A stretch of DNA of 64,000 bases from a virus (taxonomy: Duplodnaviria; Caudoviricetes), in the IMG/VR virus record IMGVR_UViG_3300011429_000087, positions 100,552-164,551 of that record; one strand, 5' to 3'. Position 1 is the first letter of the stretch; each line of letters opens with the position of its first letter. The notes under the pieces were generated by a model. The model worked only from the letters and a program-made list of their open reading frames with translations. It ran no database searches and was not told the DNA's origin. The translations under genes were made by a program, and so were the position numbers. This document shows, piece by piece, positions 8,656 through 63,765 of this stretch.

Positions 8656-9819
8656 ATGAGCAGATTAAATGGCTATCTTGATAGTTTCGTGGACCAAGCG
8701 GGTTATAGACAACACGCCGGAATTTGGAGCGGCATATCCCGGGGCGATACTATTATCCAGTCTAGTGGCCTAATTGCTCTTAGCGGTTATTTAGGCTTTG
8801 AGGCTCGTGTATTGGGCGGAAGTGGGGCCCTTAAATATCAAGGTGGAGCATTTGAAGGTTGGCAAGTTAAAATGGCTAATCTAAATCCAAATGCCGGATC
8901 TGGACGAGATGGATTTTTCCCTGTCGCCGTTTCTGGTATCTATAGTTTGCAAGATGTTTATTTTGCTAATCCTGATCTAATAATCCAGTCGAAGGCAAAT
9001 CCTCGCGGTAATGATCAAATGACCGTTACCACGAATGATCGTAAATTAATTTTTATTCAAGGACAAAGGGCACCGATTAATATTTCTGGTGCATTAAAAG
9101 TTCCAATCGTTGGTGGTGCAAACTTTAATGTCACTGGCGATCTTGCTATGTGTCATCACGCACAAGTGATGCAGTCAAATTCATTTAGCACTCCGGCAGA
9201 TGATGCCGAGGCTGATGCAAGAGCATTAGGGCCGGGTACGTTGACTCTTAATACTGGATCTGGTATTATTAATATTTCTACTGGCTCTGGTCTTTGTTTT
9301 GTTACTCTGAAAGCAGATACACAACTACCATATCTATTTGATAACTGGGCAAGAATAGGCATGTCTGGCCTAGCGGTCGAAGATAAAATGTTTACGCCCA
9401 ATACGACTGGATCTGGTATTAGTTTTATGAATACCGGCATGTATATGGTGAACTATCATATTACACTACAAAAGACGCTTTCCACTACTTCTAGAACTGT
9501 TGCAATTAGAGCAGTATTGAGAAATGCAGGTTCAGAGGGTGAGCAAAATAATGCCGGAGGAGCATTGAACGGTTCTGCTAAATTAGCAATCCCCGGAAGT
9601 ATTGCTTATGGTACGGTTACTAATGTTACGACTCTATCATGGTTTACCGTTTCGGCCTCATTTATAGTGAATGCTGACGCTGGACAATTCTTAGGATTTG
9701 AAGCTGCTGCGGCTAGTACCGGCGGTGCGGCAGGTCAAACTGTTTTTGCTAGTGCATCTGGTAGTTATGCGATCGTTCAATACATAGGACCGAAGCGTAC
9801 CTTTCCCGTTCTCGCTTAA
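8656..9819 (+). CDS. Structural protein with C-terminal C1q/TNF-like (BclA-C-like) head
   Basis: TGMYMVNYHITL...ASFIVNADAGQFL...YAIVQYIG strand pattern. Confidence 0.45.
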   Translation: MSRLNGYLDSFVDQAGYRQHAGIWSGISRGDTIIQSSGLIALSGYLGFEARVLGGSGALKYQGGAFEGWQVKMANLNPNAGSGRDGFFPVAVSGIYSLQDVYFANPDLIIQSKANPRGNDQMTVTTNDRKLIFIQGQRAPINISGALKVPIVGGANFNVTGDLAMCHHAQVMQSNSFSTPADDAEADARALGPGTLTLNTGSGIINISTGSGLCFVTLKADTQLPYLFDNWARIGMSGLAVEDKMFTPNTTGSGISFMNTGMYMVNYHITLQKTLSTTSRTVAIRAVLRNAGSEGEQNNAGGALNGSAKLAIPGSIAYGTVTNVTTLSWFTVSASFIVNADAGQFLGFEAAAASTGGAAGQTVFASASGSYAIVQYIGPKRTFPVLA

Positions 9820-37040: not shown

Positions 37041-37068
37041 ATTATACTCTACTTTCGCCGGGAGTCAA
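37041..37068 (-). promoter_or_regulatory. sigma70-type promoter TTGACT-N16-TATAAT
   Basis: Direct match. Confidence 0.75.
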
Positions 37069-39251
37069 GCGGGCAAATCTTTTTTATCGCGAAAAACGAT
37101 TCCGACCGGGAAACGTGGCAGATCGTCGTCGGTAAGATCAAAGTGTCTCACTGTCAATTGTCTTCCAATAAAGGACTTACGATTCTTAAACATCGCTTCT
37201 CGTTCTTCCATTGAAACTTTCATACTACATTCGAAAGTCTGCTCTGAGGTATTATTCTTACAAACCCATACAACTTTTCCAGCCATTTTACCTCTACCGT
37301 CGCGAGCGTCAGTAACTAAAAACTCTGAATCTTGGAATTTCTTAACCTTTAAAAGTTCTCTAGAGCGATAACCCCATAAGTATTTCCCCTCATGAAGTCG
37401 AATAATAGCCCCCTCATATCCTTCCTGAACAAAGACGTCATGAACGTCCCACATTTCTTTTTCAGAGGTAACATCTATAGTTGGGACTATCTTAATAAGA
37501 CCGCCAGTCCAGGCGGCTCGTTCGTATCCTTTTAAAAGCTTACGACGATTTTCCCAGTTGAGATCGTCAAATCCTGTCGACACTGGAATATCGTAGATGT
37601 GGTACTCGATCGTTTCGCTTTCAGGCTTAAATGACTTGCCCTTGGGGTCAGCAGACTTGGTGAGGGACGTAATTCTCTGGCAGGATTCGCCATGAATATA
37701 AAGTTCTCCATCTAATACACTATCCTTTGGGAGCCAATCTAAAGATGCCACAATATGTGGTATGTTCCAAGGCTTTCCTCCTCTGGAAGTGAGAGAGATT
37801 TCGTCTCCGTCCCAAGAGGCTAAAGCACGACAGTTATGAACAACGGTATTATTGGCAACATAATTATGATTTTTTTCTACTTCGATGTCATATTTCGTTG
37901 CTTTTGGCATTCTATGTGAACGCCTTACCTTAAAATCTATCCACTTAAACTCATCTTTTGCTTTATTGATATAATTATTCGTACTAAAATAGAACTTATA
38001 TTCTGCTCCATGACATTGCTTATTACGTAACTTATTTAAAATAAACAGAGTATCTTTTGTATCAAATGTTAAAAACTGTCCCGAGCACTTACTATTATTA
38101 ACTCTTTTATCAGTATAGATATTTGGTATACAGTTCCATACTATGTCAAAGTATTTTACAAACTCTTGGATCTGTTCTTTAGAATGTCCATGCGTACTGA
38201 TCGACAAGATCGGCGTGTCCCGGTTATTATTATTGTATGACAAACTACCGTCGTCACCAATCCATAATGATATGGCTTCTGGTGTTAGAAGCTTTTTCAA
38301 AGTCTTATATAAAACAAGTTTTCTTTTACCACACAAATCCGAATGTCCGGTAAAGTACCATAGTTTTATAGGAAAATTAGAATTTGTTAATGCGTCAGAT
38401 ACAAAACGAAAGCCTTGACTACCATACTCCGTGATAATTTCTGATACATTTCCTTTAATGTCTAAAGTCGTAATTTTGAAATTAAAATATGCCTTATTTG
38501 TATGTTGAAATACTACTCTATATGATTGTCCAGTCCCACGTTTTTCTATTACTATCATACTATCGCCAAGCAGCGTTCCAGCTATCAGGCTATTAAGATA
38601 GTCTGAATGTGTTTTAGTCTGAATCTTATCTTTCCCAGGTGCTAAATCTATAGCCTTTTTCCAGCCATTTTGTGTGAAAAATTTATGATCGCTTGTACAT
38701 TTAATATGTTTGCCATAAACTGGCACGATCTCTAACCATTCCTTATAATCTAATTCTCCATTATTAAACCAATTAATAACTGGCTGATATTCAAATATAC
38801 CACTTTGTTCATTAAGTGACAAAACATTTACTGGGAGTTTATTTTCAACAATTTCTTCTATTGTTAATTTTCCTTTATCGGTATCTATTAAAGTATTACG
38901 AAATAAACATCCATCTAATTTTGGCTGCACTGACGCGGGAAATTTAACCTTTCCGGGTTTAAAGTCATGTGCAAGCATAGGAAGATATAGGGACTCTTTG
39001 GCCCCTTCTGGCGTCTCAGAATACTTCCTTTCAACCTTATAAGTCCAAAGCGACTTGGCTTCTAACTTAGCCTGTTCCTCTGGAGAAGTCTCATTGCTAC
39101 GCCCAACGTTCTTACCTTCGGCAGTTTTACGTGATATTTGCATGACACCATGTACTTGCCCGTATTCGGTCACAATAACCGGACCTTCTGTCCAGACGGT
39201 CCACTGTCTGAGATCGCCGGACTTGGCTTTATGATATAATGTCGGCAACAT
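37065..39251 (-). CDS. ATP-dependent DNA ligase interrupted by an intein
   Basis: PMLA, QPKLDG|CR, LDGELY, YEGAIIR, LLKVK, PRFPV. Confidence 0.9.
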   Translation of the reverse strand: MLPTLYHKAKSGDLRQWTVWTEGPVIVTEYGQVHGVMQISRKTAEGKNVGRSNETSPEEQAKLEAKSLWTYKVERKYSETPEGAKESLYLPMLAHDFKPGKVKFPASVQPKLDGCLFRNTLIDTDKGKLTIEEIVENKLPVNVLSLNEQSGIFEYQPVINWFNNGELDYKEWLEIVPVYGKHIKCTSDHKFFTQNGWKKAIDLAPGKDKIQTKTHSDYLNSLIAGTLLGDSMIVIEKRGTGQSYRVVFQHTNKAYFNFKITTLDIKGNVSEIITEYGSQGFRFVSDALTNSNFPIKLWYFTGHSDLCGKRKLVLYKTLKKLLTPEAISLWIGDDGSLSYNNNNRDTPILSISTHGHSKEQIQEFVKYFDIVWNCIPNIYTDKRVNNSKCSGQFLTFDTKDTLFILNKLRNKQCHGAEYKFYFSTNNYINKAKDEFKWIDFKVRRSHRMPKATKYDIEVEKNHNYVANNTVVHNCRALASWDGDEISLTSRGGKPWNIPHIVASLDWLPKDSVLDGELYIHGESCQRITSLTKSADPKGKSFKPESETIEYHIYDIPVSTGFDDLNWENRRKLLKGYERAAWTGGLIKIVPTIDVTSEKEMWDVHDVFVQEGYEGAIIRLHEGKYLWGYRSRELLKVKKFQDSEFLVTDARDGRGKMAGKVVWVCKNNTSEQTFECSMKVSMEEREAMFKNRKSFIGRQLTVRHFDLTDDDLPRFPVGIVFRDKKDLPA
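37833..38909 (-). mobile_element. Intein (359 aa) with LAGLIDADG homing endonuclease
   Basis: Starts CLF, block B CTSDHKF, LIAGTLLGDS and WIGDDGS, ends VVHN|C. Confidence 0.9.
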
Positions 39252-39831
39252 ATTTATTTTTCCAAGGATGTTTTGCCATTCTTTCATATTTGCATCGTCT
39301 ACAGTGACGATAGCCATGTTTATCTAACCATGTATTCTTTTCGTCAAATATATGCCCATTATTACAATGAGTTTTTCGTAAATTTTGTGCGGGAGGACTA
39401 TTGCCACGCAAGACATTTTCTGTGTTTGGAACTGGCTCAAGATGTAATATATTAACGCAATTTCTATTTTTACATAAATGGTCTATTACTAACTCTTTTT
39501 TGAGAACGCCATTGAAATATTCCCAAGCATAACGATGTGCTCGGCGTCGTTTATTATTGATAGATATGACGCCATAACCTTCTCTAGAAGTTTTTCCTGT
39601 CCAAATCCAGCATGGCGTTTCATTAAAACTATGTTCTGATATCATGACTCGACGCATGATTTTGTCTATATTACTTTTTACTCTTGGATTTTTTAAGCCA
39701 AGCCGAATAGACGCCTGTTGTACCGAGGAAAGCGAACGATTTAATATCCTGGCTATTTCTGCATGAGTAAATTTTCCACACAGATTTTGTAATATTTCTT
39801 TCTCATCTTCTGACCACTTATTATCACCCAT
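39229..39831 (-). CDS. HNH homing endonuclease with N-terminal HTH
   Basis: CWIW..GYG..AHR..IDHLCKN..CVN..HLEPV. Confidence 0.9.
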   Translation of the reverse strand: MGDNKWSEDEKEILQNLCGKFTHAEIARILNRSLSSVQQASIRLGLKNPRVKSNIDKIMRRVMISEHSFNETPCWIWTGKTSREGYGVISINNKRRRAHRYAWEYFNGVLKKELVIDHLCKNRNCVNILHLEPVPNTENVLRGNSPPAQNLRKTHCNNGHIFDEKNTWLDKHGYRHCRRCKYERMAKHPWKNKYVADIIS

Positions 39832-59379: not shown

Positions 59380-59630
59380 CGCCGGGACGGTTCGCTACCG
59401 CCGGTTGAGCGAAGCCCAACAAGCCTAGCACCCTGAAGCGGGTAGCTTCAATGCCCATACCGTTCCGAGGCTAAGAGGGACGGCGGGGCCACGTATGCCC
59501 CGTTAACAAAACGAGCCGCAAGGTTCGGTAGCTAGCATCACTACCCTTTTAAGGTAGGACGGAATCCCCATGGCTTTTTCATAGCTATGCCGTTAGGTGT
59601 GAAAAGGGCCCCGAGAGGGATCTCGGGGCC
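59380..59630 (+). ncRNA. Candidate ~250-nt multi-hairpin ncRNA with Lys- and Glu-like anticodon stem-loops
   Basis: At least 8 stems, G:U pairs valid on + strand, bounded by promoter and a 10-bp terminal hairpin. Confidence 0.65.
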
Positions 59631-60301: not shown

Positions 60302-60377
60302 GGCCCTGTCGTCCAACGGCCAGTGACGCCGCCCTTTCAAGGCGGAGACGAGAGTTCGACCCTCTCCAGGGCTACCA
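60302..60377 (+). tRNA. tRNA-Glu(TTC)
   Basis: CCGCC-CTTTCAA-GGCGG, CCA; own promoter at 60258-60285. Confidence 0.9.
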
Positions 60378-61000
60378 CTTGACACCTTTAAGAACTGAGG
60401 ATATACTACTCTCAACTTCAAAGGGGAACCAAATGGACCTGTTCAAAAAGATCCGCGAAATCCAGGATGAGAAATGTCTGCGGGATGAGGATATGGTTCT
60501 CCTCTTGTGCATCAATCTTCAGATTTTGGACTCGACGTTCCTAACGAGGCATGGGGAAAAAATCGTGGCAGAGCTTGCGTGTCCAAAAAGCTGAGTTATA
60601 GTTATCTCAACTTCAAGGGAGCTAACTTATGTGCCGCGACTGGACCGGGGACCACGAAATCCGAGCCGACGAGGAAGACGACGTTAAGGGCTGCGTCGAG
60701 TGCGGTCAGAAGGATTGCCCGGGTGACTGCGATCCTTACGCTCATTTGCCGTTCCTTCGGAAGTATGAGCCGACGGACGAAGAACTTGAAGAGATGAACC
60801 GCGTGTGGCAAAATGCACACCGGGGATGTGTGGGGAACTAAAATGCCACAATCTCTTTTCGACTACATCCGTGAGTATCAAGACTCGCACGATTGTAGTG
60901 ATGACGACATGATTGAGATTCTTTGCGATTGCATCGAAGTTGTTCAGAATGCCGATCCTAAGTGGGAAAATCTGACTGGACTTATAAAGGAATGTCTTTC

Positions 61001-61074
61001 GGGCTCTTAGCTTAGTGGCAAAGCTACCGGCCTTTAACCGGCAGACCGGGGTTCGATTCCCTGATAGCCCACCA
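61001..61074 (+). tRNA. tRNA-Lys(TTT), C33 variant
   Basis: ACCGG-CCTTTAA-CCGGC, A73, CCA. Confidence 0.85.
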
Positions 61075-61082
61075 ATTAACCT

Positions 61083-61270
61083 TTCTGCCACCCCTGTACT
61101 AGATGGCGTCATGGGTGGAAACCAAAGCGATCCGGTGCCTCGGGGCGGGACTTTAACCTGTCCTCGGGGCACTAGTATTTTTTGCCGTTTCACGGCAAAG
61201 CTTGTTCTCCTCCCGGCGACCTTGGCAGTTGTGTTAACACTATAACACAGAATTGGCTGGCGTCCAGCCA
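61083..61270 (+). ncRNA. Candidate structured RNA downstream of tRNA-Lys, with Lys- and Glu-like anticodon stem-loops
   Basis: 15-bp stem capped by ACTTTAA; TTTGCC-GTTTCAC-GGCAAA; further hairpins. Confidence 0.55.
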
Positions 61271-61324
61271 GAAATAAAAGATTTGACTTTGTAAGATTAT
61301 GTGCTATATTGTGGTGGGTGAAAT

Positions 61325-61657
61325 ATGAAACTCTTCCTCGACGACGAGAGGGCCCCACCCTCACCACAGTATCAAGTGGCATACCAAGGCTGGCAAGCAG
61401 TTGTCTACCTTGTGAGAAATAATTTCGCCATCGAGGAACTGAGTCTCGATCATGACCTAGGCGATGGTGTGCCAACTGGCTACGATGTTGCCGCTTGGCT
61501 TGAGAAAGTTGTTCTCACGCAAGGCGTACAGCCTCCAAAGATCCTGCGGGTACATTCTGCCAACCCTGTCGGTCGGGCACGGATTTTGCAAGCTTTTCAG
61601 AGCATCGCAAGATACTGTGAAGCGAATGGGATGGAGATTCCTCAAGTTTTCGGTTGA
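61325..61657 (+). CDS. Cyclic-phosphate-processing receiver-like domain protein
   Basis: KLFLDDER.P, LSLDHDLG..TGYDV, HSANPVG; own promoter at 61283-61310. Confidence 0.8.
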   Translation: MKLFLDDERAPPSPQYQVAYQGWQAVVYLVRNNFAIEELSLDHDLGDGVPTGYDVAAWLEKVVLTQGVQPPKILRVHSANPVGRARILQAFQSIARYCEANGMEIPQVFG

Positions 61658-62841: not shown

Positions 62842-63060
62842 CCAGTTCCTTTTGTGCCAGAGTCGCCCTTTATAAGGGCGGAGCGGTGGCTGCATCCCCA
62901 GGCCCGGCAACGGGCCGAAAATTTTTCCGAGTAAGTTTTACCAACTCGGTTTTTTCTGGCACGCTTTTTGCTCAGTGGCGTTACTTTTTGGTAACGGTCA
63001 ATTCTTCCGTCACCATTCAGTAACACTAGTCGCCCGGTGGGCACACTCTCCAACGCTACT

Positions 63061-63132
63061 AATCTATCTCCGATTTTTAGAGTGTCAAATAATTTTTAAA
63101 TCTCTTGACACCCTTTTAAGGTATGGTATTCT
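63061..63132. promoter_or_regulatory. Back-to-back promoter pair
   Basis: Leftward TTGACA-N16-TAGATT; rightward TTGACA-N16-TATTCT. Confidence 0.55.
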
Positions 63133-63455: not shown

Positions 63456-63765
63456 TAGGGGCCAATTTCAGAAGTGATTAAAAATCATATTAATGCAAAA
63501 AATGGGCCAAAATCTGCCCCTGTCATGTTTGTTACCATCCGGTGACGTAACCGGCTGGTAACAGTCACCAAACGGTAACGGAAATATATTCCGATCTTTC
63601 GGCATTGGCACGATACTTGCTAAAGCGGCAAATCCTGCACTAGTATAGCCTATGCAAGCGGCGACGCAAGAGCGAAAACCCTTCCCACAATTTTCCTTTT
63701 AGTGGAGTTGCCGTCCGTCCGACATAGGTTATAGTCCAAGCGAACCAAACAAAAGGGAATCTACC

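Follow-up and report, generated by a model that had tools for sequence, protein, structure and literature searches.

A conserved non-coding element joining a predicted trailer RNA and terminator to a predicted antisense promoter behind a phage tRNA-Lys gene

What is encoded in the short interval between a phage tRNA-Lys gene and the promoter that follows it, and do the tRNA-like hairpin loops found there imitate the tRNAs encoded nearby? The interval lies in the last 64 kb of the 164.5-kb linear IMG/VR virus record IMGVR_UViG_3300011429_000087, whose completeness is estimated at about 80%; these 64 kb, the whole stretch of DNA that was analysed, are referred to here as the window. The window contains 17 tRNA genes, of which only tRNA-Glu(UUC), at 60302-60377, and tRNA-Lys(UUU), at 61001-61074, are placed on the plus strand by ARAGORN. 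Strong plus-strand promoters of sigma-70 type are densely set in this region (59347, 59645, 60258, 60379, 61283 and 61654), and the element described below occupies the space between tRNA-Lys and the promoter at 61283, beyond which lies a gene encoding a cREC-domain protein (Table 1). A first-pass annotation had recognized here a second structured RNA, in which a loop resembling that of the adjacent tRNA-Lys is followed by a loop resembling that of tRNA-Glu, in the same order as in an RNA near 59380.

Table 1. Coordinates, in window numbering, of the element's features and of its neighbours.
Feature	Position	Strand	Basis or remark
tRNA-Lys(UUU)	61001..61074	+	ARAGORN; Rfam tRNA, 56.7 bits; context, outside the element
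Module 1	61077-61183	+	CCUUUCUGCC, P2, linker, T, U tail
Single-stranded motif CCUUUCUGCC, 5' end of module 1	61080..61089	+	invariant in 13/13
Hairpin P2, CCACCC/GGGUGG plus UG/CA	61088..61118	+	covariation, matched length changes
Hairpin T, 16 bp, one bulged U, loop ACUUUAA 61150-61156	61134..61173	+	dG -28 kcal/mol
U-rich tail of predicted terminator, AGUAUUUUUU	61174..61183	+	U count after stem
Small 'Glu-like' hairpin, variable spacer	61181..61199		predicted UUC triloop (+), GAA triloop (-)
Module 2	61200-61266	-	predicted sigma-70 promoter and start region
Conserved block GCYUGUUCUC..CCC..CCUUGGCAGUUGUG	61200..61238	-	12 homologues and paralogous cassettes
Predicted sigma-70-type promoter, -35 TGGACG 61266-61261, -10 TATAGT 61244-61239	61239..61266	-	promoter scan
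cREC promoter TTGACT-16-TATATT	61283..61310	+	promoter scan
cREC gene	61325-61657	+	cREC_REC PF20274, E 5.7e-22

All of the pairings listed in that annotation, together with both loops, are present where it had placed them. The region from 61075 to 61285 folds at -80.1 kcal/mol, compared with -61.9 +/- 4.5 kcal/mol for 200 shuffled sequences (z -4.08; none as good), and its minus strand folds almost equally well (z -3.97). In the minimum-energy fold the 15-bp stem is capped by ACTTTAA and the Lys-like loop does form, while the Glu-like loop zips up to a UUC triloop, a caveat that the annotation itself had raised. Furthermore, the two loop types occurred together in none of 3000 dinucleotide shuffles; a stem-capped N-Y-UUU-R-N loop arose in seven of them (0.23%), and the Glu-like loop in one. 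The 164.5-kb record, however, contains 20 hairpins with a loop of N-Y-UUU-R-N type, 13 of them ending in UUUAA, and Lys-like loops are therefore not rare against the genome itself.

Copies of the element were found on 13 distinct environmental phage contigs, the window included (the others being L121, L086, L083, L084, L087, L113, L093, L090, L091, L088, L089 and L143). The relatives were drawn from contigs encoding matches to the cREC protein and from one metagenome pattern scan, and were filtered with an HMM of the element. No close relative was found among GenBank phages, and IMG/VR likewise yielded none, whether it was searched with an exact pattern, through the SprT neighbour or with two motif patterns; five IMG/VR pattern matches (L095, L096 and L145-L147) failed the element HMM. 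Pattern matches in bacterial genomes were discarded as chance occurrences (22 of 22), and the sole covariance-model match in those genomes (L164, 22 bits) lies inside an ORF of 668 aa. Most members share one arrangement of genes, namely tRNA-Glu, tRNA-Lys, element, (HTH and zinc-ribbon ORFs), cREC. The element stands directly 3' of tRNA-Lys in seven of the 13; in five, either a small ORF precedes it (L090, L091 and L143, where the ORF lies between tRNA-Lys and the element) or there is no tRNA-Lys at all (L088 and L089, in which ARAGORN detects none). By inspection of the sequences, the ORF of L091 (404-583) encodes a strongly hydrophobic protein of 59 aa, and an unrelated hydrophilic ORF stands in its place in L090. 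A type I toxin-antitoxin reading of the small upstream ORF was rejected on the same inspection, the ORF being hydrophobic in L091 and not in L090.

When the same pairs of sequences are compared, module 1 is 70-96% identical where the third codon positions of cREC are 39-78% identical, and the identity of the 3' module is 61-82% for pairs with cREC third codon positions in that range. By this measure the element is under purifying selection and is much better conserved than the silent sites of the adjoining cREC gene. Since the lengths of the modules differ by non-multiples of three and no reading frame is common to the copies, the element is non-coding. A minus-strand ORF of 263 aa (60684-61475), which lies antisense to two small genes, tRNA-Lys and the element, was dismissed as spurious because it is absent from all relatives. 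Stop-free stretches on the plus strand are not common to the relatives either, and a 17-codon ORF starting from an ATG in the P2 loop was discarded, the ATG being missing in the other group of sequences. Rfam returned only the two tRNAs for this region of the window, even at E up to 10, and within 61075-61300 neither the tRNA covariance model, at its gathering score or at E up to 10, nor ARAGORN yielded a match. The two halves of the element can occur apart: L089 carries the 5' half only, through the U tract, and partial paralogues of the 3' half lie without the 5' half at other intergenic sites in L090, L091, L088 and L143. The modules are therefore separable.

Comparison of the 13 copies supports the principal helices of module 1. 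In a covariance-model alignment, 90.1% of the cells in P2 and in the 10 basal pairs of T are paired, and seven pairs have changed on both sides; none of 500 shuffles is as good, and controls in which the pairing was slid reach 40-62%. The basal 10 pairs of T, taken alone, are paired in 94.6% of cells, with double changes at four pairs. In P2, one pair has changed from C-G to U-A in three sequences and 1-nt changes in length are matched on both strands, while the loop, GYACUAGNUGGCGUC (13-17 nt), is highly conserved. Two of the helices proposed in the first-pass annotation are thereby supported as features of the family, as the 15-bp stem is paired in 91% of cells across the relatives, with double changes at three pairs, and CCACCC/GGGTGG in 85%, with double changes at two. 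The remaining helices fared less well. CTGCCA/TGGCAG can form in the window, but across the relatives it shows no covariation, is not compensated and has lost its partner in L089; of TGTGTTA/TAACACA only the outer four pairs hold (75% of cells paired); and TGGCTGG/CCAGCCA, although present, is not conserved (39% paired).

P2 and T contain 39 G.U cells and only 4 A.C cells, an excess which implies that both helices have been selected on the plus strand. Together, the covariation, this G.U bias and the purifying selection support the earlier proposal of a structured RNA trailing tRNA-Lys, and indicate that it is conserved, non-coding and of plus-strand sense. The opposite arrangement would be a single minus-strand small RNA gene, with leftward transcription of the entire element from the conserved promoter of module 2 and a functional RNA complementary to the one described in the first-pass annotation. 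Conservation does end on the right precisely at this promoter, the two strands are almost equal in folding, as noted earlier, and the spacer hairpin is slightly stabler on the minus strand in several members. On that strand, however, the 39 G.U cells in P2 and T become C.A mismatches, and inspection of the sequence reveals no run of U after T, nor is there one at the left edge; conversely, a U tract follows T on the plus strand in 12 of the 13 members. We therefore regard a minus-strand gene as highly improbable.

As judged from its sequence, T is a classic intrinsic terminator in these 12 members. Across all 13, its stem comprises 10-16 bp with a dG of -18 to -29 kcal/mol, and the 10 nt that follow it contain 6-8 U, except in L090, which has 4; a terminator scanner likewise reports T as a plus-strand terminator in L091 and L093. 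In the window, no further plus-strand promoter was found from the one at 60379 to the one at 61283, and none precedes the element in L091 or L093; a strong plus-strand promoter follows module 1 in every member. With the anatomy of T, this distribution of promoters identifies T as the probable terminator of the tRNA-Lys early unit. In the predicted arrangement, tRNA-Lys is the last gene of the early unit transcribed from the promoter at 60379, and module 1 is the structured 3' end of that unit. T resembles intrinsic (Rho-independent) terminators in its G+C-rich hairpin of 10-16 bp, its loop of 4-8 nt and its U-rich tail, as well as in closing a transcription unit shortly ahead of the promoter that follows. 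Yet in the window's group the U tract begins 4 nt past the stem, unlike in intrinsic terminators, and T differs from a bare terminator in being preceded by a conserved, covarying hairpin and by invariant single-stranded motifs.

A conserved hairpin placed before a terminator is also a leader-like layout, which raises the question as to whether module 1 is a cis-acting attenuator, with P2 and the invariant motif sensing a ligand, a tRNA or a protein and setting the read-through of T into the HTH and cREC genes. GGGUGG can pair either with the upstream CCACCC or with a downstream CCUCCC, and in the window's group the string GGGUGG-AAACCAAA-GCG is loosely like the T-box core. Nevertheless, such a role is extremely improbable, given that every member has a strong promoter of independent action downstream of the element, that no T-box (RF00230) or riboswitch match was obtained at E up to 10, that the other group lacks the T-box-like string (GGGUCGAGAG), and that the downstream pairing partner is missing in L089. 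The resemblance to a T-box was itself ruled out, there being no Rfam match and the string occurring in one group only. A long-range pairing of GGGUGGA with UCCUCCC was also rejected, as it shows no compensation and its partner is missing in L089.

The 5' motif of module 1 may take part in a further interaction. UGCC(A) of CCUUUCUGCC and UGGCG of the P2 loop are 100% paired, with one-sided changes only, and their pairing may create a pseudoknot. RNAalifold prefers UGCCR/UGGCG over P2, so that the two are alternative candidates for the fine structure of module 1; a pseudoknot combining UGCCR/UGGCG with the inner part of P2 is 93% paired, its pseudoknot helix being without double changes. The phage genome holds no site complementary to CCUUUCUGCC. 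Mimicry of the anti-Shine-Dalgarno sequence was considered for CCUCCUUUCU, which is like the 3' end of 16S rRNA, and was rejected, since the window, L121 and L086 are without CUCC.

While the first-pass annotation had read the 3' half of the element as further RNA hairpins, the alignment points instead to a minus-strand promoter. The spacer of this promoter is 16 nt in all 12 homologues and, in the window, ends in TGT; TGn is invariant in the 12 (n being T, C, G or A), and the -10 element is TAT(A/G)NT in each of them, with T1, A2, T3 and T6 invariant and position 5 free. The -35 element ranges from TTGACA, in five members, to the weak TGGACG of the window. Nine of 12 positions match the consensus in the window and 8-12 of 12 in the relatives, the scanner reporting 12 of 12 for L091 and 11 of 12 for L093. 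Because substitutions in the -10 and TGn elements occur only at tolerated positions, the pattern fits a sigma-70 promoter. Read on the minus strand, the conserved block beside it is the initial transcribed region ACACAACUGCCAAGG...GGGAGGAGAACA, with a predicted start site near 61232. Furthermore, the genome's own early promoters match the promoter part of the module HMM in reverse orientation, and in the paralogous cassettes the same promoter is followed by the same start region, CAACUGCCAAGG...GAGAACAGGC. Module 2 is thus predicted to be a minus-strand sigma-70 promoter with a conserved start region, and not an array of RNA hairpins. An A/T-rich tract at 61267-61282 separates it from the cREC promoter, the two standing back to back.

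Cassettes consisting of the conserved block and the minus-strand promoter were located at 4264-4345 in L091, at 9151-9238 and 2440-2570 in L090, at 2120-2240 in L088 and at 6945-7030 in L143. From the cassettes of L091 and L090, the minus-strand transcript opens a frame of more than 50 codons after GGGAGAACAGGCU-GUG/UUG.

The terminator and promoter anatomy of the locus would also suit plain punctuation, that is, a terminator with divergent promoters, at which the extra conservation reflects DNA-level sites for phage or host regulators and the trailer serves only termination and 3'-end protection. That module 2 reappears in the relatives as a cassette set between other terminators and promoters agrees with this, as do the similar layout at 62901-63132 of the window and the sigma-54-like motifs in the spacer of four relatives. 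Conversely, P2 lies upstream of and apart from the terminator and displays covariation of RNA type with a plus-strand G.U bias, its loop and CCUUUCUGCC are invariant where the neighbouring gene is saturated at silent sites, and L089 keeps module 1 without module 2. Punctuation as the whole explanation is consequently fairly unlikely, although binding of proteins to the DNA could account for part of the conservation of primary sequence.

It is against this background that the tRNA-like loops have to be judged. Module 1 varies most at the apex of T. The loop there is Lys-like in the window (ACUUUAA), in L121, L086 and L083 (CCUUUAA) and in L084 and L087 (CUUUUAA), and is otherwise GUAACA (L093, L090 and L088), GAAA (L091), CCUAA (L089), CCUAAAAA (L143) or UCCA (L113). 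The homologue alignment therefore did not reveal the conservation that the earlier reading called for: the Lys-like loop is confined to six of the 13 members, which form one shallow group, and its conservation among these six does not exceed that of the remaining module (L084 and L087 are 79% identical). Its occurrence by chance, judged by the shuffles, is low without being negligible. In a canonical 7-nt anticodon loop, position 32 is a pyrimidine, U33 precedes the anticodon at 34-36, and position 37 is a purine; the window has A32 and C33, and a pyrimidine 32 together with U33 is found only in the CUUUUAA loops of L084 and L087. On this evidence the Lys-like loop is best described as no more than the variable apical loop of the predicted terminator.

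The Glu-like hairpin is similarly restricted. TTTGCC-GTTTCAC-GGCAAA is present in the window, but its stem is 46-69% paired across the relatives and is not conserved, and the hairpin reaches -9.9 kcal/mol, and is thus strong, in no members other than the window, its near-twin L121 and L086, the values in five others being 0 to -5 kcal/mol. It lies in a hypervariable spacer which, in L084, L087, L093 and L090, carries TGGCAC-N5-TTGC, the sigma-54 promoter consensus, in the hairpin's place. The element has no relationship in sequence to the RNA near 59380, its covariance model and its HMM each finding a single copy in the window. The convergence of the two RNAs that the first-pass annotation had suggested is not supported, as it depends on two loops that are not conserved in the element family.

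These observations bear directly on the possibility of a decoy, in which the anticodon arm of tRNA-Lys is imitated by the apex of T and that of tRNA-Glu by the hairpin after it. The pair would titrate host anticodon nucleases or inhibit them, and would belong, along with cREC and the phage tRNAs, to a decoy-replace-repair module. Several points are in its favour. A Lys-like 7-nt loop is present in only 0.23% of shuffles, as described above, and six sequences preserve the UUUAA core above a stem that has undergone compensatory changes. The apex of L084 and L087 is GGA-CUUUUAA-UCC, and CUUUUAA closed by an A-U pair is the canonical bacterial tRNA-Lys loop, as in E. coli and B. subtilis. In addition, the window's tRNA-Lys has an unusual C33, and the context of phage tRNA-Lys, tRNA-Glu and cREC fits a tRNA-directed conflict (PMC10264068, PMC7824862). 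Yet unrelated apical loops occur in seven of the 13 members, at least four of which keep both tRNA-Lys and tRNA-Glu, and L088 and L089, without a tRNA-Lys that ARAGORN can detect, still have the element. The six Lys-like members amount to one shallow group whose loop is no more conserved than the module, and the loop of the window itself has A32-C33 and not Y32-U33. The Glu-like hairpin is restricted to the window, L121 and, in part, L086, and closes to a triloop; hairpins with UUUAA in the loop are common in the genome (13); and there is no tRNA-like Rfam match. A decoy function for the element is therefore very improbable. By inspection, the apex of L087 differs from the anticodon arm of the L093 tRNA-Lys at 1 nt in 16, but this match consists mostly of G/C stem and is not decisive for regarding the apex as a copy of a tRNA-Lys arm.

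A narrower form of this idea, in which the lineage of the window, L121, L086, L083, L084 and L087 recruited the terminator apex to imitate the anticodon arm of tRNA-Lys, is likewise given only a slender chance. The apex in the window carries C33, as does the phage's own tRNA-Lys, and the same applies to its closest kin. If recruitment did occur, the apex might act as a competitor that resists cleavage, directed at a Lys-specific anticodon nuclease or at some other protein that binds tRNA-Lys, and the locus would present an RNA decoy layered on a terminator, beside replacement tRNAs and an enzyme that processes RNA ends, cREC.

The reading that we favour, and consider reasonably probable, is that of a composite operon-end element, in which a conserved trailer RNA ending in an intrinsic terminator is combined with a conserved antisense promoter. 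Transcription from the promoter at 60379 would end at T, and excision of tRNA-Lys would then leave a stable trailer RNA of about 105 nt, a small RNA whose invariant unpaired motifs might serve in base-pairing or in binding a protein. The promoter of module 2 would fire back towards T, giving an antisense transcript complementary to the trailer. Both a stable regulatory trailer RNA and an antisense RNA from module 2 are thus predictions of the comparative analysis. Points that weigh against this reading are the weak -35 element of the window and its 4-nt gap between stem and U tract, the lack of a phage site complementary to CCUUUCUGCC, and the preference of RNAalifold for UGCCR/UGGCG over P2.

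Small RNAs derived from tRNA trailers and 3' ends are known from other systems, such as 3'ETS-leuZ of E. coli and the stable RNAs of the T4 tRNA cluster, whose function is unknown. Like these, the element has no promoter of its own and is conserved above neutral sites; in 7 of 13 members it lies directly 3' of a tRNA gene, and the operon terminator forms its end. It bears no sequence or Rfam relationship to them, however, and differs further in the five members that have a small ORF before the element or no tRNA-Lys.

Two other comparisons are instructive. The thrS mRNA operator of E. coli mimics the anticodon arm of tRNA-Thr, and T is similar in presenting a stem with a 7-nt loop that bears the anticodon triplet of the neighbouring tRNA; unlike in thrS-type mimics, the loop is not conserved, has A32-C33 in the window, and caps a 15-bp terminator stem and not a 5-bp arm. 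The oop RNA of phage lambda is a short antisense RNA that converges on the 3' end of an operon, and module 2 similarly provides a conserved opposite-strand promoter aimed at the 3' end of the early unit. The module 2 transcript differs from oop in being predicted only, T has no minus-strand U tract, and the relatives have further copies of the module 2 cassette in several of their intergenic regions.

The element, which has no Rfam match, is a previously undescribed conserved non-coding element from the early region of large soil and groundwater phages. It is new as a phage non-coding element, while being of a general kind already known, and it adds to the few structured phage RNAs known to be kept beside tRNA genes. 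It also calls for caution when phage tRNA regions are read for decoys, as 'anticodon-like' loops of terminators can be lineage-specific decoration.

Several further observations were made on the surroundings of the element. The anticodon loop of the window's tRNA-Lys is CCUUUAA, with C33 in place of the near-universal U33; the tRNA-Lys of L086 (773-846) has CCUUUAA as well, and those of the other relatives have CUUUUAA or UUUUUAA. Phage tRNAs have been proposed to counter anticodon nucleases (PMC10264068), and the C33 tRNA-Lys could be a nuclease-resistant variant of the type proposed in that work. For the cREC domain family, Iyer and colleagues (PMC7824862) predicted a role in the processing of 2',3'-cyclic phosphate or cyclic ADP-ribose ends. 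Among cREC loci generally, most of the 60 that were scanned (of 80 fetched) have no tRNA nearby; the linkage of tRNA and cREC is specific to this phage group.

In the record as a whole there are seven sigma-54-like motifs of the form TGGCA[CT]-N5-TTGC, where shuffled sequences give an expectation of 0.49, and the record contains no sigma-54 gene or activator gene above the cut-off. Four of the seven are of consensus grade and intergenic, two of them on the plus strand of the window (62957-62972 and 63606-63621) and two on the minus strand at genome positions 1352 and 1505. A second intergenic region, at 62901-63132 of the window, has a layout like that of the element, with two plus-strand terminator hairpins, a sigma-54-like motif and divergent promoters; its sigma-70 promoters stand back to back, at 63088-63061 on the minus strand and 63105-63132 on the plus strand. 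Finally, the minus-strand gene for an ATP-dependent DNA ligase (37065-39317) is split by an intein with a LAGLIDADG endonuclease domain.
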